Of a stretch of DNA of 64,000 nucleotides, positions 474 through 51,435 are shown in pieces. Where the stretch lies: NCBI GenBank assembly GCA_028289135.1, contig JAQGGW010000003.1, positions 66,015-130,014 of the forward strand, written 5' to 3'. The stretch comes from Candidatus Saccharimonadota bacterium (lineage in GTDB: Bacteria > Patescibacteriota > Saccharimonadia > Saccharimonadales > JACDBH01). The position numbers and the translations under genes were made by a program. Within the stretch, counting starts at the first letter, position 1. Every line of letters starts with the position of its first letter. The notes beneath the pieces are model-generated. The model saw nothing but the letters and a program-made list of their open reading frames with translations, had not been told where the DNA came from and did not search any database.

Positions 474-2075
474 CTACCACTCTATGCGGACGGGTTTCAA
501 AACTATCCGCACCGCACTGCGCAGCTTGGCAACAACCGGAATAGCTTCTTCCAGGCTAAACAAAGATGAAAGCCCCAAGTGTACACTCATCGTAACCAGT
601 GTAATAATCCCAAGCTTAAAACCAAGCGTAATCAAACCTTTATCGGCCTTATGAAGCGGGAAAATCTGCACCATAATATATGTCGCCACCACCGAGAAAC
701 CCGTTACAGAAAAAATCCGCCACAGGCCGCCCCAAAAGCGGATATCAAACAGCTTGTGATCTTTTATAAGCATAATCGTAAACAGTACCGCGACTTCGCT
801 GATAGCCACAATCGTCTGTGCGAGCGCCAGGCCAGAGATTCCGTAATGAGTTGGCTTTGACAGCTGCCATGCCAAAAAGATGTTGAGCGCAATCGCGAAA
901 ATAGAAACTCCAAGCGGTGTCCAAGTGTCTTTTTGGGCGTAAAAATAACGTGAAATAATGGCGTAGATAATCCTAAAGAATATTGCGCCGCACAAAAATC
1001 CAAAAATGCCGGTAATCTCGTTGGAACCGCGCGTAAAGATCAGCCGGGCCAAGTAGCCGCGGCCAAAGAAACAGATGACGACCATTGGTATGGTAATCCA
1101 GATCATTGCGCGAAGAATCTTTAAGAAGTCTTGCCTAAAAAGATCCGGCCGACCTTGGCTGAGCCTAGCGGTCAGGCGCGGAAACGCCGCGGTAGCAATG
1201 GTGGTGCCGATTAGCTGTATAGGTACTGTATGCAGCGTGTAGGCGTTCTCGTAATAACTAATGCTGCCAGCTCCCAAACGGCTCCCAAAGTTTGTCTCGA
1301 CAATGGAGTTGATGGAATCTATACCCTGGTCAATCGACCGCGGCGGAAGCTGACGCAAAACTTTTCTAAAATCAGGGTTTTTAAAGTTAATTCTAATTTT
1401 AAATAGAAAATCCAAGCCGCCAAGGCCAAACAAAACAATCAAAAGCTGCAGAATTGCTCCAATCAGCGCGCCGATGCCAAGGCCCACAATGCCGATGTTG
1501 TCGCGGAATATAAAAATACTAATGATGACAGCAAGGTTATAAAACAGCGGCGCGATGGCGTAAAAGAAAAACCGGCCGAATGTTTGCTGGACGGCGGTTA
1601 AGATCCCAGAGATGGTAAACAAAAACGGGTTAAATGACACCAAACGCATAATGACTACCGCGTTATGCTTTTGGTCAGGGGTTAAGCCAGGCGCCACCAG
1701 GTGGACCAGCGGCTCGGCGAATATCAAAATAATAATGCCGACGATACCCATAACAATAGCCAGCATGTTCAGCAGGCTGGTCGCCAGCTCCCAAGCGCCT
1801 TTATTGTCGTTTTTTTCTAGATGGTCCGCAAGAACTGGGATAAAGGCTACACCCAAAGCGCCAGCTGCGATAGTAAAGAAGAAGAAGTCGGGGATCTTAA
1901 AGGCGGCAAAAAAGGCGTCCGTACTCTGGCCGCCAAACTGGGAAAAGTTGGCGTTGACCAGCTTAACTTTTAAAAATCCAAGGATCTGCCCAGATAACGC
2001 GGCAACGATTAACAGGGCGGCAGCGTTACCAAGCGAGATTTTTTTGTTGGCCTTATCAAAGAATCGGTTCTTCAT
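474..2075 (-). CDS. murJ: Lipid II flippase MurJ/MviN family
   Basis: Polytopic 533-aa protein with MurJ-like N-terminus (MKNRFFDKANK...SLGNAAALLIVAALSGQILGFLKVKLVNANF). Start trimmed from 2219 to ATG 2075 because the extra 48 codons overlap the neighbouring gene. Confidence 0.8.
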   Translation of the reverse strand: MKNRFFDKANKKISLGNAAALLIVAALSGQILGFLKVKLVNANFSQFGGQSTDAFFAAFKIPDFFFFTIAAGALGVAFIPVLADHLEKNDNKGAWELATSLLNMLAIVMGIVGIIILIFAEPLVHLVAPGLTPDQKHNAVVIMRLVSFNPFLFTISGILTAVQQTFGRFFFYAIAPLFYNLAVIISIFIFRDNIGIVGLGIGALIGAILQLLIVLFGLGGLDFLFKIRINFKNPDFRKVLRQLPPRSIDQGIDSINSIVETNFGSRLGAGSISYYENAYTLHTVPIQLIGTTIATAAFPRLTARLSQGRPDLFRQDFLKILRAMIWITIPMVVICFFGRGYLARLIFTRGSNEITGIFGFLCGAIFFRIIYAIISRYFYAQKDTWTPLGVSIFAIALNIFLAWQLSKPTHYGISGLALAQTIVAISEVAVLFTIMLIKDHKLFDIRFWGGLWRIFSVTGFSVVATYIMVQIFPLHKADKGLITLGFKLGIITLVTMSVHLGLSSLFSLEEAIPVVAKLRSAVRIVLKPVRIEW

Positions 2076-7241: not shown

Positions 7242-7318
7242 TGGTAGCGATGACAAGATTCGAACTTGTGACCCCAGGCTTATGAGTCCTGTGCTCTAAC
7301 CAACTGAGCTACATCGCC
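7242..7318 (-). tRNA. tRNA-Met (CAU), elongator type, CCA encoded
   Basis: Reverse complement GGCGATGTAGCTCAGTTGGTTAGAGCACAGGACTCATAAGCCTGGGGTCACAAGTTCGAATCTTGTCATCGCTACCA folds as a cloverleaf and closely resembles E. coli elongator tRNA-Met. Confidence 0.85.
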
Positions 7319-10357: not shown

Positions 10358-10526
10358 TGATAACTCCTTATATTATTTAAATAATAACATATTAATGATT
10401 TTAAAGCAATTATTGTTTAGTTACCTCTGTTTAAGGACAAGTATTGCATTGCTTTATACGCTTGATCGTGCTTTACTATGTGTACAGGTACTAATCTGTT
10501 CACACGGAGTTCAAAGATACGGTTCG

Positions 10527-10615
10527 CCTTGATTGTTCTATACAAGAAAGACACGGGCAGTTCGAGAGGTTCAAGAGACGGAGAAGTGGTCGACCTGAAG
10601 TGTTAACAATCAAGG
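10527..10615 (+). promoter_or_regulatory. Structured 5' leader of the RRM gene: 11-bp long-range helix that sequesters the SD
   Basis: ccttgattgtt (10527-10537) is the exact reverse complement of aacaatcaagg (10605-10615). The 3' arm overlaps the AAGGA SD 11 nt before ATG 10627. Confidence 0.4.
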
Positions 10616-10626
10616 AAAATTTATAC

Positions 10627-10923
10627 ATGTACAAACTATTTGTAGGCGGCCTCCCATTCTCGACAACTGATGACGAGATGAAGGATGTGTTCGCTGCTCA
10701 CGGTACTGTTGCATCAGCTGTTGTGGTCAAAGACCGCGATACTGGCCGCAGTAAGGGCTTTGGCTTCGTCGAATTCGAAAACGATGAAGAAGGCAAAGCT
10801 GCTGAGAAGGCTCTTAATGGATCCGACATGGGTGGCCGTTCAATTACGGTCAACGAAGCTCGTCCAAAAGAAGACCGACCTCGCCGCGATTTTGGTGGTG
10901 ACAACAACCGCCGCAGCTGGTAA
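10627..10923 (+). CDS. RRM-domain RNA-binding protein with Arg/Gly-rich tail
   Basis: RNP-2 LFVGGL and RNP-1 KGFGFVEF. Start set to ATG 10627 (MYKLFVGGL) with AAGGA SD. Confidence 0.9.
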   Translation: MYKLFVGGLPFSTTDDEMKDVFAAHGTVASAVVVKDRDTGRSKGFGFVEFENDEEGKAAEKALNGSDMGGRSITVNEARPKEDRPRRDFGGDNNRRSW

Positions 10924-10940
10924 TTTATTACCGGTTTAAA

Positions 10941-10966
10941 GGGCCCCTCTTAGGAGGGGCTTTTTT
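10941..10966 (+). terminator. Rho-independent terminator
   Basis: GCCCCTC-ttag-GAGGGGC followed by T6. Confidence 0.7.
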
Positions 10967-11011
10967 ATTTGGCCGTTTGCCGAGGATGCTATACTACTAC
11001 AGCTTAATTAA

Positions 11012-11605
11012 GTGAGGGTAAAGCAGTTGAAGCATAGGCCATTGGTATTTTTGGACATCGAGACCACAGGGGGGAGCCCGCGATTTTCACGCATTACCGA
11101 AATTGGCGCCTTGCGGGTAGAAGATGGCAAAATTGTTAAAACTTTTAAGCAGCTTATTAACCCCGAAGAACGCGTGCCTAGTTTTATTACCAACCTCACG
11201 GGGATTACCGACGAAATGCTGTGGGATGCGCCGCTTTTTAAGGGCATTGCGGACGAGCTGGAAGTGTTTTTGGATGATGCGCTGTTTATTGCGCACAATG
11301 TTAGCTTTGACTACAACTTTATAAAAATGGAATTTGAGCGGATGGGACTGGCGTTTAATATGGACAGGGCCTGCAGCGCGCGCTTGAGCCGCCGGTTATA
11401 CCCCGAACACAAAAGCCACGCGTTGGACAGGCTGATTGAACGCATGAACATTGACGTTACCAACCGCCACCGCGCCTATGACGACGCTGAAGTAATCTGG
11501 AAGTTTTTTCAGGTGGAGCTTAAAAAGCGCGAGCTGGAGCTGTATAGCGCCGTGAATAAAGTCACTACCTACGCCCGTCCGCAAAAAGTACCTATAACCG
11601 GTTGA
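11012..11605 (+). CDS. DnaQ-like 3'-5' exonuclease (DEDDh)
   Basis: Exo I DIETTG, Exo II HNVSFD, Exo III HRAYDDA. GTG start at 11012; alternative TTG at 11027 after GAGGG. Confidence 0.85.
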   Translation: MRVKQLKHRPLVFLDIETTGGSPRFSRITEIGALRVEDGKIVKTFKQLINPEERVPSFITNLTGITDEMLWDAPLFKGIADELEVFLDDALFIAHNVSFDYNFIKMEFERMGLAFNMDRACSARLSRRLYPEHKSHALDRLIERMNIDVTNRHRAYDDAEVIWKFFQVELKKRELELYSAVNKVTTYARPQKVPITG

Positions 11606-12734
11606 GTACGCCAAGGCCAGTCGGCCCATCGTAGCCGTTTCCGCTTAGGCATAAATAAGTTTTACAGCTTCCGTTATGCCCCGACACAATGTCGCGGACC
11701 ATACTGGCATTAGAGTAAAACCAAGCTGGCTGGTTGCTTAAACGGCCACTAGCAGCCAACATGCCGGCTACCAAAGGAGCGGCCAGGCTTGTGCCGCCAA
11801 CCTTAAACCAACCGCTCCGGCCTTCGTCTGGGTAGCTGTCATAAACTGCGGCGCCAGTAGCAGGATCGGCATCGGCGGCTACATCAGCAATGCTGCGTTT
11901 CTTGCAGCTTGTATCGTGCTGCCAAGTGGGTTTGGATTCGTATTTGCTGCAGCCGCTTCCAGCATCCAGCCAGGCGGTTTCGCTCGTTACTACTGCGCCG
12001 TTCATGTGCAAGTCGGTACCTCCGACTGCGACAACATATGGTGATGCCGCAGGATAACTTGTCCCATAGCCACTGTCGCCAGAACTAGCAACCATAACAA
12101 CGCCGGCATGATTATAATGCCCGTCCGCAGAGGTTTCGGAAGCCGTTTCTGGCCCGCCATATGAATTGGAGACAACTTTTGCATGCAGGCTGGCTGCTTG
12201 GTCAACCGCCTGCCCCAGATCTGCCATGCTAGACGAAGCTGCTTCTATAAAATCTATCCTACAGTGCGGGCATAAACCGTGCACCGACTCCACGTCCATA
12301 CTGGCCTCAACCGCCCAGCCGCTATCTGCTGCCGGGAAGGAGCTTCCACCGCGTTCGTCATACTTTTTAAAACAGCTGGACTGGCTTTCTGATGTACAGG
12401 ACGGCAACGTAGCAATTCCAAATGTACGGCTGTAGGTATTTAGATCATCGGCAATGTGCGGGGCATCATAGGCCACGACAACCGCCACTACTACGCTTGC
12501 CGACCCCTTAACACCGTAGGCGTTTTTAAAGTCTGCCGGTCCATAGCCAACAGGCGTGCTGGATATTAACGGCTTGTTTTTGCTGTCGGTTACAATCTGG
12601 GCATTGCAGCGCGCACTACCTGCGGCGGCTCTTTTCGAACAGGCCTTTTTGGTTTGTGATGCGGCCTGTACATTAGCCGGTGCCATGCCAAATAAGACGC
12701 CCACCACAAGCGTTAAAATAATCCATTTTTTCAT
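11592..12734 (-). CDS. Secreted serine peptidase, sedolisin/subtilase-like (S53/S8)
   Basis: Signal peptide ...ANVQA; SSGDSGYG and GGTSLAAPLVAG catalytic-Ser motif. Confidence 0.7.
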   Translation of the reverse strand: MKKWIILTLVVGVLFGMAPANVQAASQTKKACSKRAAAGSARCNAQIVTDSKNKPLISSTPVGYGPADFKNAYGVKGSASVVVAVVVAYDAPHIADDLNTYSRTFGIATLPSCTSESQSSCFKKYDERGGSSFPAADSGWAVEASMDVESVHGLCPHCRIDFIEAASSSMADLGQAVDQAASLHAKVVSNSYGGPETASETSADGHYNHAGVVMVASSGDSGYGTSYPAASPYVVAVGGTDLHMNGAVVTSETAWLDAGSGCSKYESKPTWQHDTSCKKRSIADVAADADPATGAAVYDSYPDEGRSGWFKVGGTSLAAPLVAGMLAASGRLSNQPAWFYSNASMVRDIVSGHNGSCKTYLCLSGNGYDGPTGLGVLNRL

Positions 12735-12837
12735 CGGATTTCCTCGTAAAATTACCTAACCAGTGGACATAGTTTTATACCGCCCAGTTTTTGATGTCAA
12801 CAAAATATTGGCTAAGTAGTAATTAATACACTAAATT

Positions 12838-14886
12838 TTAAGCATCTTGCTCGGCATAAAGCGACTGCGAAACGCGTTGTATTTTTGGTCGTAGGGTTAC
12901 CTGCCTAAGAACCTTGATGTCCTTAAACTCATTCTTAAAAGCTTGCGGCGTAATGTAGCGGAACATCATAGTGGTCAGCGCTTTTTCTTGTTTGAACGTC
13001 ATTGGTTTAAAGCTAAGCTCGGCCTGGTAGTGGCCTTTTTTAATTTTTGTCATTGTTACCACTTTAGCTTTAAGTGTCAGCCGGCGTTTAACATCAGGGC
13101 CAATACTGACCTCGACATTTTTTTGCCTGATATTTTGTTTACTGGTTATTTCGGCTCCGCGCATACTAATGCTTTTTAGCTGCACTGCGCGGCGTTTGTT
13201 GTCGATGAGCAAAATTGGCAGTTCGGTTCGGAGCTGGTGGGAACTGCGGGATTTTTCGTCGTGGAAATTAACAAAAAACAATACCGAGCCAACAAAGAAT
13301 AAGTTAATTAGGTTCCAGAGCATTGATACGCCGGCCGTACTATGCAGAAGCTGCTGCAGGCTTTTACCCTCGCGCATAAACCAATAAAGCGGCGAAGCCA
13401 GCGCGCCAAACAGCGTGAACGCGAATAGGAAAAGTAAAAACCTGTAAGCGCTGGATTCCTTTTTTAGGCCGCGGATTTTAAGCGAAACTTTAAACTTTTT
13501 CTGGACGTTTATGATGCCTTTGGTAGCCATAATGTTGGCGTAGATATTGGCTATATTAAACTGCTCGGTATAAAGCGGGTGGAAAGTGCGTCGGGAAAAC
13601 AGGTATGTTACCGCGTAGGAAATAATTACAAACGGCAGCGCAACCGCTGTGTACTGCAAAACCGGGATCGTCGCCAAGTTATGCTGCAGCGGCAAAAGCG
13701 CCAGCAGTAAAGCAGGCAACAAAATATAAAAAAGCCGTTGCAGTCCGTTTAGAAAAGCAGCCGTCGAGTTGATGTAGCAAATCCGCTGCATAATGCTCAA
13801 GCCCCGTGCGCGCAGAGGCGAGTCGGCAGAACGGAACAAAAGCCCCAGTGAACCAGCGCCCCAACGCACGCGCTGTTTGTGGTATTCATTTAGATCTTCA
13901 GCCGCGATTCCGTGCGCCAAAATTTCGCTGACAAACAGCGAATTCCAACCTTTGGCGTGCAGCCGAAGCGAAGTGTGGATATCTTCTGTCGCCGTACCGG
14001 TCGCAAAGCCGCCGATTTGGTCAATGGCCGAACGGCGCAGCATGGAGCCGCTGCCGCAAAAAAACGCCGCATTAAATGCATTTTTTGCCGGCTGGATCGA
14101 CTCATAAAACATGCTCTGTTCATTCCAATAATTGCGCTGGCGGGTACGCCTAAATTGGATGCTGTCGCGGTTATAAAAAGTCTGGGGTGTCTGCACAAAG
14201 GCCAGATTTTCGTCCCTAAAATAGCCAAGTGTGCGTTCGATAAAATTAGCCTGCGGTACATGGTCGCAGTCCAAAAATACCATAAAATCCGCATCCGAAT
14301 GTTTGATGCCGTTGTTCATGTTGCCTGCCTTGGCGTGCGTGTTTTCCGTTCGACCCACATGTTTGCCGCCAGCCTTAAGAGTTAGTTTGCGGATGTTTTC
14401 ACGGTTGCCATCGTTTAGCACATAGACATTTCTGACACCATAAACGTTAAGCGCGCCGAGCAATGTCATTTTTACGATTTCCTCGGGTTCGTTGTAGGTA
14501 GTTATAAAAATATCAACCGTCGCGCCTTTTATCGGCGGCTGCCATACCGGATCCAAAATCCGCCGTGTCGTAAAGATAAAAGAAATAGTAAAAGCAATGC
14601 TATAAAGTTCGGCCGAAAGTAAAACGTAACTATACCAAACATGCCAAGATGAAACGGTCGTAAACCGCCAGACTAAATATGAAGTAGCCATCAAAAGATA
14701 CAGCGGCAAAACGGCTTTTAGCACCCGCGAACTGATACCGCCGGTTTCGACCTCATTAAAAACATTTGACCGGTAAATAAGCGTGCGGTTACTTGGCGTT
14801 TCATAATGCGAAACGGTCATTTTTTGGGCAATGTCAAAAACATCCGCACTATTTACCCCTTTAGACCAGCGTTTAAAACCCCTCAT
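12838..14886 (-). CDS. Processive family-2 glycosyltransferase (cellulose-synthase-like) with C-terminal PilZ-like domain
   Basis: GT2 D,D,D,QxxRW signature: TTYNEP, LNDGNRE, FLDCDH, TED, QRVRWGAGS. Multiple TM helices. C-terminal RSSHQLR...KSISMRGAEI resembles the PilZ RxxxR / (D/N)xSxxG motifs, with the first motif non-canonical. Confidence 0.8.
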   Translation of the reverse strand: MRGFKRWSKGVNSADVFDIAQKMTVSHYETPSNRTLIYRSNVFNEVETGGISSRVLKAVLPLYLLMATSYLVWRFTTVSSWHVWYSYVLLSAELYSIAFTISFIFTTRRILDPVWQPPIKGATVDIFITTYNEPEEIVKMTLLGALNVYGVRNVYVLNDGNRENIRKLTLKAGGKHVGRTENTHAKAGNMNNGIKHSDADFMVFLDCDHVPQANFIERTLGYFRDENLAFVQTPQTFYNRDSIQFRRTRQRNYWNEQSMFYESIQPAKNAFNAAFFCGSGSMLRRSAIDQIGGFATGTATEDIHTSLRLHAKGWNSLFVSEILAHGIAAEDLNEYHKQRVRWGAGSLGLLFRSADSPLRARGLSIMQRICYINSTAAFLNGLQRLFYILLPALLLALLPLQHNLATIPVLQYTAVALPFVIISYAVTYLFSRRTFHPLYTEQFNIANIYANIMATKGIINVQKKFKVSLKIRGLKKESSAYRFLLFLFAFTLFGALASPLYWFMREGKSLQQLLHSTAGVSMLWNLINLFFVGSVLFFVNFHDEKSRSSHQLRTELPILLIDNKRRAVQLKSISMRGAEITSKQNIRQKNVEVSIGPDVKRRLTLKAKVVTMTKIKKGHYQAELSFKPMTFKQEKALTTMMFRYITPQAFKNEFKDIKVLRQVTLRPKIQRVSQSLYAEQDA

Positions 14887-15118
14887 ATGTATATGATGTA
14901 ATGCCTATGATTTATAATTAAAATTATTGTTAATAATACCTATTTCGTATCTGTTTGTAAGGTGTAGCGAAAAGTAACGGTCACAGCGCGGCTTATACAT
15001 CGTACCCTCCCATAGACAATAGAGTAATATCTTTTGCTGCTAAGTAGCGTGAGAATTCTAACTGAGTGGCCGTAATGCTTGGTAATATAGTGAAATTATC
15101 TAAATAGGAGAATATAAG

Positions 15119-15292
15119 ATGACTAAATTTGGACCAAAGGCCAGCGAAAAAGTCGGAAAAGCGATGCATGAAATGAAAGAAGGTACGCTAAAAAGCGGTA
15201 GTAATGGCGAGAAAGTTACTAGTAAAAAACAAGCCGTTGCCATAGGCCTTTCTGAAGCCCGCCGCGAAGGCGGCAAAGTACCAAAAAAATAG
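15119..15292 (+). CDS. Small basic protein, 57 aa (resembles the DUF6496-type family from memory)
   Basis: Below the track cutoff. AGGAG SD 8 nt upstream. MTKFGPKASEKVGKAMHEMKEGTLKSGSNGEKVTSKKQAVAIGLSEARREGGKVPKK. Confidence 0.6.
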   Translation: MTKFGPKASEKVGKAMHEMKEGTLKSGSNGEKVTSKKQAVAIGLSEARREGGKVPKK

Positions 15293-15294
15293 CC

Positions 15295-15903
15295 TTAAGA
15301 AAAACTGATGCCTACTAAAGGCTTCATCTCATTTGGATCAACCATATAAACACGGTGGATCTGAATAGAATTATTAATCATTTTAAAAGCACGCGTCGGA
15401 CGGATTAGAATAAAGTTTTTACGAAGATCAATATCTTCAATATAACCGCTTACTTTTTTAGGACCATGTTCGTTTAGGTGTGAACGGCCATGAGCATCGC
15501 GCCAAAACGTATCAATGGGCCACGGCTCGTCAATTAGGACCCGTATGCTAACTTTAAGCCCTCGGTATTTTTCTTTTACTTGCAGCTCTGCTAAAAGAAC
15601 CTGATTATCCGTATAGACGGCCACCTGCAGAGCCTGTGTTTTTTGCAGATGCGCATTTACGCTTGCCTTGGCTATAATGGCCTGTTGCTCTGGCGGTATA
15701 TCGTTTGGCGTTACATAAACATTGTTATGTGCTCCGACAGCTGCAATATTCTGCAGTGCCAAAATTTCATCACGCTCCGCCTGCTGCTTTAAACCTGCTG
15801 CAACCGACTGGTTGGCTACGGCCGAAACAAACTCCTGCATCAGCCCCATGCCATAAGTAACCAGTTCCGTCTTAGCAATCTTCTTCTTAAACATATACCC
15901 CAT
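15295..15903 (-). CDS. Hypothetical protein
   Basis: 202-aa ORF; no motif recognised. Confidence 0.5.
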   Translation of the reverse strand: MGYMFKKKIAKTELVTYGMGLMQEFVSAVANQSVAAGLKQQAERDEILALQNIAAVGAHNNVYVTPNDIPPEQQAIIAKASVNAHLQKTQALQVAVYTDNQVLLAELQVKEKYRGLKVSIRVLIDEPWPIDTFWRDAHGRSHLNEHGPKKVSGYIEDIDLRKNFILIRPTRAFKMINNSIQIHRVYMVDPNEMKPLVGISFS

Positions 15904-15954
15904 TATAACCTCTTCAAACTTCTAATGTCTTCTTAAAACATTCAGCAATTGTGT

Positions 15955-16073
15955 GAGTGCAGCACAGTAGTGCAGTTTGTTCGGAACCCGAGTACCGAAG
16001 CGGAGATGTACGGAATGGTACATTGAGCATCGGAACGGAGGGTTCCGGGCAAAATGTGCACTGTGCTGTGCTC
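15955..16073 (+). ncRNA. Structured element copy 1 (unclassified ncRNA candidate; paralog at 51058-51178)
   Basis: 13-bp closing helix, 11-bp inner helix and apical hairpins. All helices are kept in the second copy by compensatory changes. G-U pairs are consistent only with the + strand. Confidence 0.45.
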
Positions 16074-16321
16074 TACCTTACTCGAGTCATCAAACGTAGG
16101 TTGGCGAGGTAGTGGTCCGGGTCAACGCTCGGGTGAGTCTGCAAATAAGCCATATGCTTATCAACAAAAGACACTAAATGGTCTGGGTGAGCATCAGCGT
16201 TGGCGCTGTAGCTGTCGATGGTTGAATAGCCAATGTCGGTGGCCATGTTTTTTAAAGCTTCCTGAATCTTCGCACCCTCTTCAGACGTGTACAAATCCGG
16301 TCGTTTCTTTGCGGTTGGCAT
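16073..16321 (-). CDS. Hypothetical protein, 82 aa
   Basis: ORF only. Its stop codon abuts the 3' end of element copy 1. Confidence 0.4.
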   Translation of the reverse strand: MPTAKKRPDLYTSEEGAKIQEALKNMATDIGYSTIDSYSANADAHPDHLVSFVDKHMAYLQTHPSVDPDHYLANLRLMTRVR

Positions 16322-19421: not shown

Positions 19422-20900
19422 TTAGTAGCCCGAGAAGTAGTCGCTAATTATTTGGCTGGCGTGCACGCCGTGGTGGCGCAGAAGTTCGCGGTATGACTCC
19501 ACCAATCCATTTGGCCCGGAAATATAAAACAAACGTTCTGAGAAATCAGGCACGTGTCCAGCTAATTGTTTTAAGCTCAGTCTGCCTGATGTTATGGGAA
19601 CAAACTTAAGCCCGGGCGTTGAAGTAAATATATCAGTGTAAGCAAGCTCAGCGGCGTCGGAAACCAAATAAAACAAAACGATATCGCGCTGCTCACGGGT
19701 GTCGGTTAAATATTTCGCCATGCTCCTAAATGGCGTAACGCCGACGCCTCCAGCGATAAAAACTAATTTTTTAGACGAATCTGTGGGCAGAGTAAAGTTA
19801 CCGGCAAGCTGGCCGGCAGCAATTTTGTCACCCGGTTTCATATTAAAAAGCGCGCGCTTAAAATTGCTAGGCGGCGCGTAAAATTTGACTCCCATATGCA
19901 CATCCGGTTCGGTTGGCGACGAAGCGATCGTAAAGCTGCGCCGGTTGCCACGCCCGTCACTTTTCATGTTCGGCATCGTCCATTCCATATACTGCCCAGG
20001 CTCAAAACTAAATCGATGATCGGGCTTGAAAACATAGTCATAAACCCTAGGCGAAATTTCATTTTTGGCCTTAAGCGTTAAGTTTAGCTTGAACTTTGGG
20101 TTTAGAATAAAGGCAAATATATTGCCGACCGCCAGCACCATGTGCGGGCTGGTCGAGAGTATTCCAAAGCGAAGCTGCGCGCTAAAAAGCGCACCCACCA
20201 GAAGGCCGTAAAGCAGCTGGTAGTATTCATGAACGGGCATGGTGGCTGGTTCGGTTAACATAACGCTTGCTAGGAATATTAACGGGCCGGAAAGTACCGC
20301 GTTTTTTAGCAGTGTCACCAGTGGTAAGGAGCCTACCACGCCAACCAGTACTAGCATTGCAATACTAGCCGCAACAAATGTTAAAGCCAGCTTAAAACCA
20401 CGTATTTTTCGTAATATTAATAGCCCGAAAATCACCACGAAAGGCAGCATGGTTGGGTTGCCGATCCACCAGGTCACCGACATAAGCCCAGTGAGGCTCA
20501 AAAAAAGCGCGCCAGCAACCGCCGGGTTAAAAATATGCTTATGGTGATATGAAATGAGAAACTTTGAGACAACAGCAACTGCCCCCGCTAACGCCACATA
20601 TGATAAACGCGCAACCGTTGTCGATGGCGGCAAGATGCAGGCCAGGATTAGGGCAGTAATTAAATATGACTCGCTGTTTGTTACGGCGCCGTAAAGTTTT
20701 TCTAGCAGTTTGTTGGTCAGGTAACTAACTGCTACTAAAACAACCGCAACCAAAACAATCCCGAGGCCGGACAACGACAATACGCCCATAAAGCCAAAAA
20801 AGCTGGCCAAAACCAAAAGCAAAATAAGCCCATAGAGCAGCAGGCGGTACATAGTGATGCTGTTTAACAGCTGGTCAACACGCTTAATAATAAAACTCAT
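19422..20900 (-). CDS. Fusion: RnfD/NqrB-like polytopic membrane domain + FNR-like FAD/NAD(P)H oxidoreductase domain
   Basis: N-terminal ~260 aa multi-TM with FNPA motif. C-terminal RSFTIASSP (RxYS-type FAD site) and GGVGVTPF (NAD(P)H site). Confidence 0.7.
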   Translation of the reverse strand: MSFIIKRVDQLLNSITMYRLLLYGLILLLVLASFFGFMGVLSLSGLGIVLVAVVLVAVSYLTNKLLEKLYGAVTNSESYLITALILACILPPSTTVARLSYVALAGAVAVVSKFLISYHHKHIFNPAVAGALFLSLTGLMSVTWWIGNPTMLPFVVIFGLLILRKIRGFKLALTFVAASIAMLVLVGVVGSLPLVTLLKNAVLSGPLIFLASVMLTEPATMPVHEYYQLLYGLLVGALFSAQLRFGILSTSPHMVLAVGNIFAFILNPKFKLNLTLKAKNEISPRVYDYVFKPDHRFSFEPGQYMEWTMPNMKSDGRGNRRSFTIASSPTEPDVHMGVKFYAPPSNFKRALFNMKPGDKIAAGQLAGNFTLPTDSSKKLVFIAGGVGVTPFRSMAKYLTDTREQRDIVLFYLVSDAAELAYTDIFTSTPGLKFVPITSGRLSLKQLAGHVPDFSERLFYISGPNGLVESYRELLRHHGVHASQIISDYFSGY

Positions 20901-32911: not shown

Positions 32912-32986
32912 CGCGGGGTGGAGCAGTGGCAGCTCGCGTGGCTCATAACCACGAGGTCCCAGGTTCGAGTCCTGGCCCCGCTACCA
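32912..32986 (+). tRNA. Initiator tRNA-fMet (CAU), CCA encoded
   Basis: CGCGGGGTGGAGCAGTGGCAGCTCGCGTGGCTCATAACCACGAGGTCCCAGGTTCGAGTCCTGGCCCCGCTACCA. C1:U72 mismatch and close similarity to E. coli tRNA-fMet. Confidence 0.85.
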
Positions 32987-44874: not shown

Positions 44875-44951
44875 GGGGGTATAGCTCAGTTGGTTAGAGC
44901 AGTCGGCTCATAACTGATTGGTCCTTGGTTCAAGTCCAAGTACCCCCACCA
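44875..44951 (+). tRNA. tRNA with CAU anticodon, probably tRNA-Ile2 (lysidine-modified)
   Basis: GGGGGTATAGCTCAGTTGGTTAGAGCAGTCGGCTCATAACTGATTGGTCCTTGGTTCAAGTCCAAGTACCCCCACCA. Resembles E. coli ileX more than metT. tilS is present in the window. Confidence 0.6.
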
Positions 44952-49069: not shown

Positions 49070-50188
49070 TTATTCCCAACGGAAGACACGGAAAGCGATG
49101 AAGTACACCACTATCATCCACACCGCCATAATCCCGAGCTGCGGGCCAAGCTGGGTAAGGTGCTTGCCCTCGGTCGCAATCAAGCGGGCGCCATCAATAA
49201 CAGGGGTAAGCGGGAAAAAGTTGGTAACGCTTTGGAGCCAGATAGGCATTGCAAAGCGCGGGAAGAACGTACCGCTTAAAAACATCATCGGGAAAACTAC
49301 AATGTTAGCTAGCGGCGCGGCTTGGCGCTCGTTTTTGGCCCAACCGCCAATGCTCAAACCAATACCCAAAATAAGCACGATGCTAAAGACCAAGAAAATG
49401 GCTAGTTCGAAGTAGTTGCCAACGACCTTGAGGTGGAACAGTGTCATAGCCACCGCAAACATCACTCCAAGCGTCATAAGGCCCACTACGGCGTTGCCGA
49501 GCATGATAGACAGGAAATACTGCCAAACACGCAACGGAGTGGTGTGGAGGCGGCGGAGGATGCCCATCTTTTTAAGTTCTGGGAAGATGTTGATCGGGCC
49601 AAAAATGCCCGCGCCCAAGATAGCGAAGCCGAGTAAGCCCGCAAATGTGTAGTCAAACGAAGACAAACTTTTGTCATTAAGCTGCTTTGGAACGGCTACA
49701 AAAGGCGTAGTAGTCTTAATAATGCCTGCATTTACAGGGGTAAAGTAGCGTGTCTGCAAAAAGCCCTGGACTGCCTGGCCGGCTTGGGCGCCGTTTTGGG
49801 TATACAAAACTTCGGCCTGGCCACTTGGGTGGCCGTCTTTTAGCTGGCCAAAGTTTGCCGGGAAGATAATCGTCGCGTCCAGCTGGCCGCGGGTCATGGC
49901 TTCTTTCGCGGCTTTTAGCGTATTGATTTTACTGTCAATTTTTAGGATCTTGTCCTTGCCCGCACTGGTTACAAAGTCTTTATAATATTGGCTGTCGGTA
50001 CTGCTAACAACTGCGACTTTAAAGCTTGTGCCAGAGTGGCCTGAAATTCCACCAAATACGAAAAGAAAAATTAGTGGGAACAAAAACGTAAAGAAAATGG
50101 CCGTTTTGTCGCGGAAAAGGCGCTTAAAGTTGGTGACAAAAAACACCCAAACGGTAAACAGCTTAGTTCTCATGCTCATTTTTTTCAT
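49070..50188 (-). CDS. ABC-2-type transporter permease
   Basis: 372 aa; N-terminal TM, large loop, 5 C-terminal TM helices. Confidence 0.75.
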   Translation of the reverse strand: MKKMSMRTKLFTVWVFFVTNFKRLFRDKTAIFFTFLFPLIFLFVFGGISGHSGTSFKVAVVSSTDSQYYKDFVTSAGKDKILKIDSKINTLKAAKEAMTRGQLDATIIFPANFGQLKDGHPSGQAEVLYTQNGAQAGQAVQGFLQTRYFTPVNAGIIKTTTPFVAVPKQLNDKSLSSFDYTFAGLLGFAILGAGIFGPINIFPELKKMGILRRLHTTPLRVWQYFLSIMLGNAVVGLMTLGVMFAVAMTLFHLKVVGNYFELAIFLVFSIVLILGIGLSIGGWAKNERQAAPLANIVVFPMMFLSGTFFPRFAMPIWLQSVTNFFPLTPVIDGARLIATEGKHLTQLGPQLGIMAVWMIVVYFIAFRVFRWE

Positions 50189-50961
50189 ATCGCGGCCAAT
50201 CCCTTTCCAGTCATTTCAATAAATACGTCTTCCAGGTTTGCCTGCTCGACTTTTTGGTTCTTGGTAAAACCCTTGGCCAGCAAGTTCTTAATGAGGTTCT
50301 TAGGCGTGTCGAGGGCGATGATATTGCCGTCGTCCATAATGGCGATCCGGTCACACAACACCTCGGCTTCGTCCATATAATGGGTGGTCAGGATGACGCT
50401 AATGCCGCGGTCACGGACTTCTTCAATGAGCTTCCAGAGGTTGCGGCGGGCTTGTGGGTCAAGACCGGTTGTTGGCTCGTCCAAGAAAAAGACTTTTGGG
50501 TTATGAACAAGCGCTGCGGTGATGCTAAAGCGCTGTTTTTGGCCGCCAGACAGGTTTTCGACGAAGCTGTTTGCTTTGTCGCCCAGGTTAACATCATCCA
50601 AAAACTTTTTAACATCGACTTTTTCGCCATAGGCCGCAGCAAACATCTGGATCAGCTCGCTCAGCTTGGTTTTGTCTTGGAATCCTGGTGCTTGGGGCTG
50701 GACGCCAATAATGGCCCGGACTTCGTAAGGATGCTCAGCAACGTTTAGACCAGCGAGAGTAGCTGTGCCACCGTCGATTTCGCGGAGTGTCTCGATCATT
50801 TCGAGAGTCGTGGTCTTGCCGGCGCCGTTTGGCCCTAATATGCCAAAAACTTCGCCTTTTCTGACTTCAAAGCTAATGCCGTTTACAGCTACTTTGTCGT
50901 CATATTTTTTAGTAAGTTTGTGAACTTTTAGAATTATTTCATCTGAGATATGTCTTGTCAT
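50185..50961 (-). CDS. ABC transporter ATP-binding protein (DrrA-like)
   Basis: Walker A GPNGAGKTT, LSGGQKQR, FFLDEPT. Confidence 0.9.
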   Translation of the reverse strand: MTRHISDEIILKVHKLTKKYDDKVAVNGISFEVRKGEVFGILGPNGAGKTTTLEMIETLREIDGGTATLAGLNVAEHPYEVRAIIGVQPQAPGFQDKTKLSELIQMFAAAYGEKVDVKKFLDDVNLGDKANSFVENLSGGQKQRFSITAALVHNPKVFFLDEPTTGLDPQARRNLWKLIEEVRDRGISVILTTHYMDEAEVLCDRIAIMDDGNIIALDTPKNLIKNLLAKGFTKNQKVEQANLEDVFIEMTGKGLAAI

Positions 50962-51057
50962 AAGTAATAGTATACATGTTAAGTATCCTCATTAAAACCC
51001 TGTTTCAGATTAAATAAATCCTCCATTTGAGAAATGCAGCTAAGTGGAATATGTCAC

Positions 51058-51178
51058 CCGGTGCTTTTCAGTAGTGCAGTTTGGTCGAAGAACGAGCACC
51101 GGATTCGGAGTGTATACAGAAATACATGGAGAAACGGAGCGGAGTTATTCGGCCAAAATGTGCACTGAAAAGTGACGG
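51058..51178 (+). ncRNA. Structured element copy 2 (paralog of 15955-16073)
   Basis: Same conserved blocks and the same three helices with different sequence. Followed 14 nt later by a bidirectional terminator. Confidence 0.45.
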
Positions 51179-51191
51179 CCTAGCGTCAAAT

Positions 51192-51219
51192 AAAAAGAGC
51201 TCCCGAGGGAGCTCTTTTT
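51192..51219. terminator. Bidirectional terminator
   Basis: A5-GAGCTCCC-ga-GGGAGCTC-T5. Confidence 0.75.
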
Positions 51220-51234
51220 ATTTGTAAGCGTTAA

Positions 51235-51435
51235 CTAAGCAGCGCGCTTGACTGTTAGGAAACCGTTACGTGGGTTTTCGTTAACCATCATACCTGCAGG
51301 AACAGCATCAACAGCCTCTGGGCGCTCGTCCTTGCTAAAGTAATAGATTGTCTGCTCTTTGCCGCCGCGTAGAACAACAGCCTTTGAATTTAAGAAGTAT
51401 GTTACCCCTTTTGAGTTTGTGTGCTTGTAAGCCAT
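51235..51435 (-). CDS. Small conserved-looking hypothetical protein, 66 aa
   Basis: MAYKHTNSKGVTYFLNSKAVVLRGGKEQTIYYFSKDERPEAV...; GAGGG-type SD region upstream. Confidence 0.5.
   Translation of the reverse strand: MAYKHTNSKGVTYFLNSKAVVLRGGKEQTIYYFSKDERPEAVDAVPAGMMVNENPRNGFLTVKRAA

Follow-up and report, generated by a model that had tools for sequence, protein, structure and literature searches.

Two copies of a rod-like hairpin of ~125 nt lie on the plus strand of the window (the whole stretch of 64,000 nt that we analysed), and both belong to a strongly conserved structured element that had not been classified before, most likely a small RNA. We put at roughly 0.5 the probability that both copies are paralogues of a new family of small, protein-binding structured RNAs of ~125 nt, read from the plus strand and dispersed in the genome. 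All members known so far come from one small clade of soil and freshwater Saccharibacteria. A covariance-model search of the 64-kb window, run with filters off, gave these two members only. They align end to end at the positions proposed in an earlier sequence-only reading, are 78% identical to each other and both contain the four conserved blocks named there. Their context is also as it was described, with a minus-strand gene that starts to the left (15903; 50961) and a small minus-strand ORF (82 aa; 66 aa) that ends to the right. The two copies (bounds from the covariance model), their parts and their neighbours are as follows.

15951–16077, plus strand: copy 1, full element; cmsearch score 128–131 bits, RNA fold −76.2 kcal/mol (z −11.1); orthologous copies in L034 and L036.
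15955–15966, plus strand: copy 1 outer stem, 5' arm, pairing with 16062–16073; the variable, covarying part, randomised yet still paired between copy 1 and L034.
15967–15979, plus strand: copy 1 core, 5' block GTAGTGCAGTTTG, pairing with 16050–16061; holds the bulged A, the tandem U-G/G-U and the G of the G-A mismatch.
15980–15989, plus strand: copy 1 inner variable helix, 5' arm, pairing with 16040–16049; covarying (columns 32–43 with 167–176).
15990–16039, plus strand: copy 1 distal domain, with the CGAGYAC block, the dyad-symmetric helix, GA-containing internal loops and the apical hairpin 16006–16023 (loop GGAATG).
16050–16061, plus strand: copy 1 core, 3' block CAAAATGTGCAC.
16062–16073, plus strand: copy 1 outer stem, 3' arm, which overlaps the stop codon of the 82-aa gene (CTA, TAG on the minus strand, 16073–16075) by its last base.
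16073–16321, minus strand: 82-aa gene without Pfam match, convergent with copy 1; 99% identical in L034.
15295–15903, minus strand: 202-aa gene without Pfam match, the next minus-strand gene after copy 1.
51055–51181, plus strand: copy 2, full element; cmsearch score 120–128 bits, RNA fold −55.4 kcal/mol (z −7.3); orthologues in L009 and L025.
51071–51083, plus strand: copy 2 core, 5' block GTAGTGCAGTTTG.
51154–51165, plus strand: copy 2 core, 3' block CAAAATGTGCAC.
51043–51054, plus strand: 12-nt 5' flank of copy 2, of the GGAATATGTCA type, conserved with the copy-2-type copies L009 and L007 and partly with L025.
51187–51224: intrinsic terminator for both directions (A-run, GC stem, T-run), separating copy 2 from the 66-aa gene.
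51012–51018, plus strand: AAATAAA, left copy of a 7-bp direct repeat.
51188–51194, plus strand: AAATAAA, right copy of the same repeat.
51235–51435, minus strand: 66-aa gene without Pfam match, convergent with copy 2.
50185–50961, minus strand: ABC-transporter ATPase gene, whose conserved promoter region sits between the gene and copy 2.

Each window copy forms one long hairpin that is much more stable than shuffled sequence (z −11.1 for copy 1 and −7.3 for copy 2). On their common structure the two differ by 13 double compensatory and two single changes, with four pairs broken in one copy and 29 identical, so the earlier count of about 10 compensatory changes was slightly conservative. The homologue search that the same reading had called for gave ten further members in contigs of related Saccharibacteria (L001, L004, L007, L008, L009, L010, L025, L033, L034 and L036). 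In the resulting 12-member alignment, double changes occur at 36 of the 48 base pairs and 95.1% of cells are paired, in agreement with a previous count on eight members. When partners were slid by 1–3 columns, 26–47% of cells were paired, and none of 500 shuffles reached the observed values; the proposed structure is therefore supported by covariation. Two weak matches to the model were set aside as non-members: window 19442–19575 (13 bits), which is without the core and lies in or beside coding sequence, and L007 1701–1795 (18 bits), a different, near-perfect palindrome of 95 nt. Pattern matches in L002 (Hungatella) and L005/L006 (a tandem repeat) were due to chance, with no hairpin and no model match, and the exact two-block pattern gave nothing in viral contigs. 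Coding potential was rejected because of single-base indels between members.

Across the 12 members there are 62 G-U cells versus eight A-C cells, which identifies the plus strand as the selected one, as had been argued from the G-U pairs of the two copies. The tandem U-G/G-U is invariant in all 12, and the minus strand folds much worse than the plus strand (−53.6 versus −76.2 kcal/mol for copy 1, −37.3 versus −55.4 kcal/mol for copy 2). DNA energy parameters return the same asymmetry (−36 versus −28 kcal/mol). Given that RNA and DNA parameters favour the same strand, folding energies are not decisive between an RNA and a single-stranded DNA. GC skew in the window is too weak for an argument from replication strand.

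The rod begins with an outer stem of 12–15 bp that is free in sequence and kept paired, followed by a nearly invariant core helix of 13 bp (G-C, U-A, a bulged A, G-C, U-G, G-U, C-G, A-U, a G-A mismatch, three U-A and G-C). The 5' core block GTAGTGCAGTTTG is identical in eight of the 12 members. In L025, L033, L034 and L036 the differences are either compensated on the other arm or confined to the bulged base or the G-A mismatch, and where the core is altered it covaries (GUAG/CAC to AUAG/CAU, C-G to U-A, U-A to C-G). Beyond an inner helix of 10–11 bp, again of free sequence, lies the distal helix, which is dyad-symmetric (GC / A-A / CCGG-type / A-A / GC) with GA-containing internal loops on its flanks; in L007 both of its strands read GAGCACCGGAGCG. 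The apical hairpin differs by paralogue and carries variable loops of 6–8 nt (GGAAUG, ACAGAA, UUUAAA and others). In the L033 copy, a 37-nt insertion folds out as a separate side hairpin and the remaining rod is intact.

Palindromes can homogenise their arms without selection, and these genomes hold other long hairpins, such as the one at L007 1701–1795. Nonetheless, a functionless palindrome kept complementary by DNA-level correction from arm to arm, for example hairpin-templated repair, is an extremely improbable source of this structure. Such correction would yield perfect Watson-Crick pairs and would not conserve a bulge, G-A and A-A mismatches, asymmetric loops or 62 G-U cells at fixed positions, nor can it account for orthologues that are 93–94% identical. 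The conserved asymmetries thus argue strongly against it.

With Rfam 15, the whole window gave three tRNAs only at gathering thresholds. At E ≤ 10, copy 1 with 100 nt on either side gave zero matches, copy 2 gave weak matches on the neighbouring terminator only, and L004, L007, L010 and L036 gave no match overlapping the element. With six members unmatched at this threshold, the element indeed falls outside known families, and the Rfam searches rule out an identity as tRNA, SRP, 6S, tmRNA, RNase P or a known riboswitch. Size and rod shape do recall the 4.5S/SRP, Y and 6S RNAs, which like the element are single long hairpins of ~100–180 nt with a short, nearly invariant, bulged or non-canonical helix inside freely covarying stems. 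Some rod-shaped RNAs, such as Y RNAs and the two 6S RNAs of Bacillus, exist as a few paralogues in one genome, and models for 4.5S, Y and 6S RNAs can be less sensitive in bacteria of the candidate phyla radiation. It is very unlikely, however, that the element is a diverged member of such a universal or widespread family missed by current models in this phylum, considering that six members lack any match to Rfam. Bacterial SRP (4.5S) RNA is a single-copy essential gene, with conserved symmetric and asymmetric loops and an apical GNRA tetraloop in domain IV, and 6S RNA, of about 180 nt, has a large central single-stranded bubble. Our element has instead several paralogues per genome at variable loci, a variable apical loop of 6–8 nt in place of the GNRA and symmetric loop of SRP domain IV, and, within its 125 nt, internal loops of 1–4 nt only; neither the SRP models nor the 6S model matched it. 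Moreover, it matches none of the 4.5S/SRP, Y and 6S RNAs in sequence or structure, has no adjacent partner gene, and is phylogenetically narrow, being absent from ~100 kb of more distant Saccharibacteria (filters off and default filters). Integron attC sites offer another likeness, as strand-specific folded hairpins of 57–141 nt with extrahelical bases and with structure kept more than sequence. They carry R''/R' boxes (RYYYAAC / GTTRRRY) at the stem base and stand in cassette arrays beside an integrase, whereas the stem base of the element has neither box, its neighbours are ordinary chromosomal genes in mixed orientations, and cassette array and integrase are missing at its loci.

Orthologous copies are far better conserved than their surroundings. 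Copy 1 and its orthologue in L034 are 93.7% identical over the inner 95 nt, with outer stems that are scrambled yet still paired, compared with 43% and 76% at fourfold-degenerate sites of the flanking genes; copy 2 and L009 are 92.9% identical, compared with 43–68% at the fourfold sites of their flanking genes. Orthologues of 93–94% identity next to fourfold sites of 43–76% indicate purifying selection. Additionally, the locus between the 82-aa and 202-aa genes is occupied in the window, in L034 (neighbour protein 73% identical) and in L036 (45% identical), a distribution that points to deep vertical retention.

Other loci have gained or lost the element. The site of copy 2 is cleanly empty in the close relative L033 and filled in the more distant L025 and L009. 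The segment missing from the orthologous L033 site measures 169 nt and is bracketed in the window by AAATAAA (51012–51018 and 51188–51194), a repeat that could be a target-site duplication or a deletion microhomology. L033 has a copy-2-like element 2 kb away, directly 3' of an ABC permease gene, at a site that is empty in the window and in L025; comparison of this site with the empty window site revealed no direct repeat. GFS_5273 (L001) has a copy next to atpC that L037 lacks. Altogether, close relatives were compared at four loci and differ in presence or absence of the element at three, the apparent 2-kb relocation included. One identical outer-stem type is found in two unrelated gene contexts (copy 2/L009 versus L004/L007), and the relative Ga0500643 has two copies in ~60 kb. 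The flanking genes of L001, L004/L007, L008 and L010 have no homologues in the window or at the other loci.

Polymorphism at three of four loci together with a relocation is the pattern expected of a mobile element and weighs against a small RNA. The main rival, possible but less likely, takes the element for a mobile hairpin of the REPIN, ERIC or bcr1 type that is non-autonomous, a miniature DNA moved in trans by a transposase through recognition of its folded single strand. In that case the two inverted blocks would be recognition sites, the hairpin would be kept for mobility and not for the host, and any transcript would be a by-product. The empty and filled sites of copy 2, the displaced L033 copy, the copy missing from L037, the AAATAAA repeat around the extra segment and the outer-stem type shared by unrelated contexts are all consistent with this, as are positions that look 'safe', in that the downstream gene is convergent in all 12 members and, at five independent loci, has its stop codon 0–3 nt away. 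The 5' core block begins with GTAG, a tetranucleotide typical of REPs, and the enterobacterial ERICs are imperfect palindromes of about 127 bp. ERIC and bcr1 resemble the element in size (~125–155 bp), in forming a long imperfect hairpin if transcribed, in lying between genes, often at 3' ends, and in a position that varies between relatives. For bcr1 of Bacillus (about 155 bp) the precedent extends to transcription, to base changes that compensate each other in the RNA and to short direct repeats of 5 bp on the flanks (PMC3184786). REPINs are likewise intergenic, measure ~100 nt, fold in single-stranded DNA or RNA, and consist of two conserved inverted blocks about 70–85 nt apart around a variable spacer hairpin in which compensatory changes are common (PMC3116915); here, the start of block GTAGTGCAGTTTG is 83 nt from that of CAAAATGTGCAC, with a covarying spacer.

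Several traits speak against mobility as the main explanation. The blocks are not small palindromes themselves, unlike REP sequences; they pair only with each other and sit in the middle of the hairpin, flanked by a further covarying outer stem of 12–15 bp. Presence or absence at orthologous sites is a trait of MITEs, but the outermost 12–15 bp are the most variable part of the element, hence the conserved terminal inverted repeats of MITEs, ERIC and bcr1 are lacking. ERIC and bcr1 also have TA or 5-bp duplications and many copies, whereas a direct repeat is present at one of two testable sites here, the second filled/empty pair being without one, and the 7-bp repeat at copy 2 is equally expected from slippage deletion of a palindrome. 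REPINs number tens to hundreds per genome around a master sequence and are mobilised by RAYTs. In our case, the 40 window ORFs scanned and the precomputed Pfam tables of related element-bearing loci contain no transposase, the Y1 transposase RAYT included; an IS1595 transposase occurs only in the more distant L031, inside an insertion at the copy 2 site, and L031 has no copy of the element. With two copies in 64 kb, 78% identical and with no sign of a recent burst, and no transposase at its loci, this is not a typical repeat family. Moreover, a selfish element at a fixed locus should decay, whereas the orthologues are 93–94% identical, under strong purifying selection, where neutral sites are near saturation, and one locus still has its copy where the neighbour protein is only 45% identical. 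The sequence-only reading had also considered a mini-element that targets hairpins, and would have taken many copies with conserved termini as the mark of a MITE. Neither idea is supported, given that the outer stem travels with the element between the contexts of copy 2/L009 and L004/L007, the empty L033 site has no palindrome matching it, and the two copies in 64 kb are most variable at their termini. The suggested link to the leader of an RRM gene through ACGGAG (10504, 10578) fails as well, since the hexamer occurs nine times on the plus and three times on the minus strand, with ~16 expected per strand. What stands of that reading is an unclassified structured element whose plus strand is selected.

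The genes around the element differ by locus (ABC transporter, atpC, HSP20, deaminase, hypothetical proteins and an unannotated protein with the thioredoxin motif CPAC) and none recurs; the element is therefore not a cis-regulator of one gene family. The convergent downstream gene has its stop codon 0–3 nt from the stem at five independent loci, and is abutted in seven of the 12 members. A same-strand gene lies 32–141 nt before the element in six members, and three loci have both neighbours on the opposite strand. These opposite-strand genes weigh against a small RNA, since the reverse complement of the element is then probably transcribed as part of an mRNA, certainly not everywhere but at the 82-aa/202-aa locus or more. 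When co-transcribed, REP, ERIC and Correia elements act at mRNA 3' ends. Co-transcribed intergenic hairpin repeats alter mRNA stability (PMC3184786). The location of all copies at the 3' end of an opposite-strand gene, the abutted stop codons, the same-strand genes upstream and the T-run after the hairpin in L004 might likewise suggest a cis-acting 3'-end element, either a terminator, a read-through insulator, a stabiliser of mRNA 3' ends or a processing site. We regard this as unlikely. On the strand of the abutted gene, the RNA would contain 62 A-C mismatches, which is the disfavoured fold. Copy 2 and the L025 copy lie beyond that gene's own terminator and upstream of the next gene's promoter, so that this minus-strand stretch should not be transcribed. 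Most copies lack the U-tract that directly follows the GC-rich stem of an intrinsic terminator, the T-run being present in L004 only. A terminator scan was blank at copy 1 and found at copy 2 only a 5-bp stem (minus strand, 51188–51173) overlapping the 3' edge of the element. The scan misses the A-run/GC-stem/T-run hairpin at 51187–51224, which we read as a separate bidirectional terminator; it is also there at the empty L033 site and is thus not part of the element. Finally, a terminator or insulator needs no invariant asymmetric 13-bp core, no dyad-symmetric helix and no 94% conservation.

The upstream flanks provide evidence against the small-RNA reading too. A consensus scan found no sigma-70-type promoter on the plus strand upstream of either window copy, and no common -10 or -35 emerged when the flanks upstream of the element were aligned, between orthologues or across all 12 members. 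The flanks of copy 1 and L034 do not align, despite an element that is 94% identical; in L036 the start codon of the neighbour is only 10 nt away, and in L008 a terminator ends ~15 nt upstream of it. For copy 2, the conserved 12-nt flank at 51043–51054 may be a 5' tail of the RNA or a piece of its promoter. A search of the window for trans targets, using complements of the apical loops, the internal loops and the core, gave 9-mers only, at chance level.

If the element is a small RNA, as we favour, it would be transcribed as a stable molecule acting in trans as a scaffold for protein binding. Its putative recognition sites would be the invariant, asymmetric core and the distal helix, whose two-fold symmetry suggests a dimeric partner, and the variable stems may be mere spacers that must stay paired. 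Occasional duplication, or relocation to safe positions at the 3' ends of genes, could produce new copies. Alternatively, mobility and benefit to the host may be combined in a self-dispersing RNA, a small RNP scaffold specific to a Saccharibacteria clade. Its paralogues would be copied to new 3'-end sites by a mechanism that recognises hairpins, and its dyad-symmetric helix and invariant core would bind a dimeric protein. We find this rather unlikely; if true, it would represent a new RNA-protein system in bacteria of the candidate phyla radiation and a rare case of a non-coding RNA that is mobile yet selectively maintained.

Saccharibacteria and other bacteria of the candidate phyla radiation have tiny genomes, and to our knowledge very few non-coding RNAs beyond the universal ones have been described for them. 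An element of 125 nt that is more conserved than the surrounding protein-coding genes and covaries at three quarters of its pairs almost certainly has some function. Whichever reading holds, the alignment and covariance model can be used directly for genome annotation and for the design of experiments. Should the element prove REPIN-like, the range of miniature mobile DNA based on hairpins would be extended to this phylum, in a form that is under selection and unusual in its low copy number. As a small RNA with a putative protein partner, it would be a clean starting point for the study of a new RNA-protein interaction in these epibionts.

Two intergenic stretches of the window carry the same element:

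15951-16077 (+), copy 1 (w1)
51055-51181 (+), copy 2 (w2)

The copies align end to end with 78% column identity and share the blocks CAGTAGTGCAGTTTG, CGAG[T/C]ACCG, ACGGAG and CAAAATGTGCACTG. Each plus strand is predicted to fold into a single long hairpin, at -76.2 kcal/mol in w1 (z = -11.1) and -55.4 kcal/mol in w2 (z = -7.3), matched in neither case by any of 200 shuffles, while the reverse complements are much less stable (-53.6 and -37.3 kcal/mol). On the common structure we counted 13 double compensatory changes and 2 single changes, with 29 pairs identical and 4 broken in one copy. The compensatory changes described in the sequence-only reading are therefore borne out, and its account of the gene context of both copies is correct. 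The tie it drew between ACGGAG and the leader of an RRM gene is meaningless, as the hexamer numbers 9 on one strand and 3 on the other, where ~16 would be expected on each. That RRM-domain gene (10600-10923) does have a long (~240-nt) AT-rich leader (10358-10599), which has no Rfam match, and an RRM gene also lies near the orthologous element in the related locus L034.

At gathering thresholds, Rfam 15 finds three tRNA genes in the whole window and nothing else:

7245-7318 (-), tRNA gene
32912-32983 (+), tRNA gene
44875-44948 (+), tRNA gene

Permissive scans (E<=10) gave no match for w1, only weak matches for w2, mostly on the adjoining terminator, and none overlapping the element in four related loci (L004, L007, L010 and L036). 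The element is thus unclassified, as had been claimed, and a diverged version of a known RNA is very unlikely.

A covariance-model search for homologues had been suggested; run on the window with a three-sequence model and filters off, it returned w1 and w2 only. Pattern scans identified one true relative among GTDB genomes (L001, in the Saccharibacteria MAG GFS_5273) and five among soil and rhizosphere metagenomes of JGI (L004, L007, L008, L009 and L010); three further matches in public collections were due to chance. Fetching loci through homologues of the flanking proteins added L025, L033, L034 and L036, bringing the family to 12. Both sides have changed at 36 of the 48 pairs and 95.1% of cells hold standard pairs, in an alignment that was fitted to the model's structure and is somewhat favourable to it. 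Sliding the partners by 1-3 columns leaves 26-47% standard pairs, and in 500 shuffles no observed measure was ever reached. Three sequences went into the initial structure prediction; the nine members added afterwards conform to it. The element is real and represents a new family, either an unclassified structured small RNA or a hairpin element. It is confined to a narrow Saccharibacteria clade, and ~100 kb of more distant Saccharibacteria contained no copy. Three Logan contigs, L003 (window 10871-16018), L026 (6507-6573) and L028 (1002-1068), end exactly at the hairpin apex, most likely because the assembly stopped at the inverted repeat, and not as a sign of many copies.

The hairpin begins at its base with an outer stem of 12-15 bp, free in sequence, followed by a 13-bp core (5'-GU[A]GUGCA[G]UUUG with CAAA[A]UGUGCAC-3') marked by a bulged A, a tandem U-G/G-U that never varies and a G-A mismatch. 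The core is identical in eight of the 12 members; its changes, G-C to A-U in L025, L033, L034 and L036, C-G to U-A in L025 and U-A to C-G in L033, are compensated. Beyond it lie a helix of 10-11 bp, again free in sequence, and an internal loop with the conserved CGAG in its 5' strand and G-N-A in its 3' strand. The two strands of the distal helix read almost alike (GAGCACCGGAGCG on each in L007), making it two-fold symmetric (GC, A-A, CCGG, A-A, GC). A second GA-containing loop separates it from an apical hairpin of 6-7 bp, whose stem and loop are particular to each copy type. L033 has an insertion of 37 nt that forms a side hairpin without disrupting the rod. An exact 16-mer, GGGGTCCCCATGAAAC, part of a small palindrome, occurs within that insertion (12319-12334, minus strand) and, in L001, ~15 nt upstream of the copy there (1772-1787, plus strand), and is not found in the window; the palindrome may represent another, smaller kind of insertion element in these genomes. 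The copy in L007 is followed ~270 nt downstream by a different hairpin of 95 nt, near-perfect but lacking the family core (L007 1701-1795; -65 kcal/mol, z -11.8).

Summed over all members, 62 G-U cells stand against 8 A-C cells, so that selection for pairing acts on the plus strand, in agreement with the G-U argument made from the two copies and with the poorer folding of the reverse complements. This asymmetry alone cannot tell RNA from single-stranded DNA, since folding with DNA energy parameters also prefers that strand (-36 vs -28 and -30 vs -21 kcal/mol). The tandem U-G/G-U is a typical RNA motif.

Comparison of orthologous copies indicates purifying selection on both sequence and structure, the paralogue-specific apex included. 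Between w1 and its positional orthologue L034 the inner 95 nt are 93.7% identical, against 43% (n = 60) and 76% (n = 33) of fourfold-degenerate sites in the neighbouring 202-aa and 82-aa genes; the outer stems are 37-62% identical and keep their pairing. Likewise, w2 and L009 are 92.9% identical across 127 nt (fourfold sites, 43-68%), and the intergenic DNA surrounding the elements does not align. The 82-aa/202-aa locus is filled in the window, L034 and L036, where the neighbouring protein of L036 is only 45% identical. A palindrome without function is very unlikely.

All copies are intergenic, with no recurring neighbour gene family. All 12 members face a convergent downstream gene, whose stop codon is 0-3 nt from the stem at five independent loci. 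Four of these five stops are TAG, vs 29% among 68 window ORFs (binomial P ~0.03, unexplained):

16073-16075 of the window, abutting TAG stop
1929-1931 of L001, abutting TAG stop
1125-1127 of L010, abutting TAG stop
~12222 of L033, abutting TAG stop

At the window's empty permease site, the same permease gene stops with TAA (49070-49072). At least 32 nt precede the element in every member but L036, where it is 10 nt from the neighbour's start codon. This position would suit a cis-acting terminator or insulator, but neither the favoured strand nor the arrangement at w2 nor the extent of sequence conservation fits, and we regard such a role as unlikely. At w2, as in L025, the 66-aa gene's terminator flanks the element on one side and the conserved promoter region of the ABC gene on the other, and minus-strand transcription of this stretch is not expected. 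On the plus strand upstream of the copies we found no sigma-70-like promoter and no conserved motif. A conserved TTAACATGTATACTATTA stretch directly before the start codon of the ABC ATPase gene (window 50962-50990; equivalents in L025 and L011) suggests a promoter giving a leaderless or near-leaderless mRNA. A Pfam scan of 40 window ORFs showed ordinary housekeeping genes, with no transposase or recombinase among them.

Copies come and go between relatives, as seen across the window, Ga0500643_000009 (L033, L034, L037) and GFS_5273 (L001, L025). The 66-aa/ABC ATPase site holds a copy in the window, L025 and L009. Of the three relatives compared (L033, L025 and L009), L033 is closest to the window at fourfold sites, yet its site is cleanly empty; the more distant L011, L021 and L022 also lack a copy there. 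Instead, L033 has a w2-like copy, 90% identical to w2 over a 72-nt stretch, at a distance of 2 kb, just past the stop codon of the ABC permease gene and at a site empty in the window and L025. The atpC-adjacent copy L001 has no counterpart in L037. At w2 the extra segment measures 169 nt and is flanked by a 7-bp direct repeat, AAATAAA, which fits a target-site duplication or, equally, microhomology remaining after a palindrome was deleted by slippage; no direct repeat is seen at the other filled/empty pair, the L033 permease site. Two members are mosaics, L007 joining the outer stem of w2 to the apex of w1 and L025 the same outer stem to the inner part of L008, suggesting exchange between paralogues. 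This turnover, together with 'safe' insertion sites and a REPIN-like architecture (PMC3116915; for bcr1 and ERIC, PMC3184786), would suit a mobile hairpin, which we consider less probable than a small-RNA function and compatible with it. The gap between the 66-aa and ABC ATPase genes (50961-51235) is, with its orthologues, an insertion hotspot, holding a deaminase gene in L009, a 59-aa ORF in L032 and ~8 kb including an IS1595 transposase and a relaxase in L031.

A family of small structured RNAs fits best, given the conserved sequence and structure at fixed loci, low copy number, divergent paralogues, invariant asymmetric core and two-fold symmetric helix. We put the probability of such a family at about 0.5; its members would be transcribed and would work in trans through binding to a protein that may be a dimer. 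The element merits an Rfam-style description.
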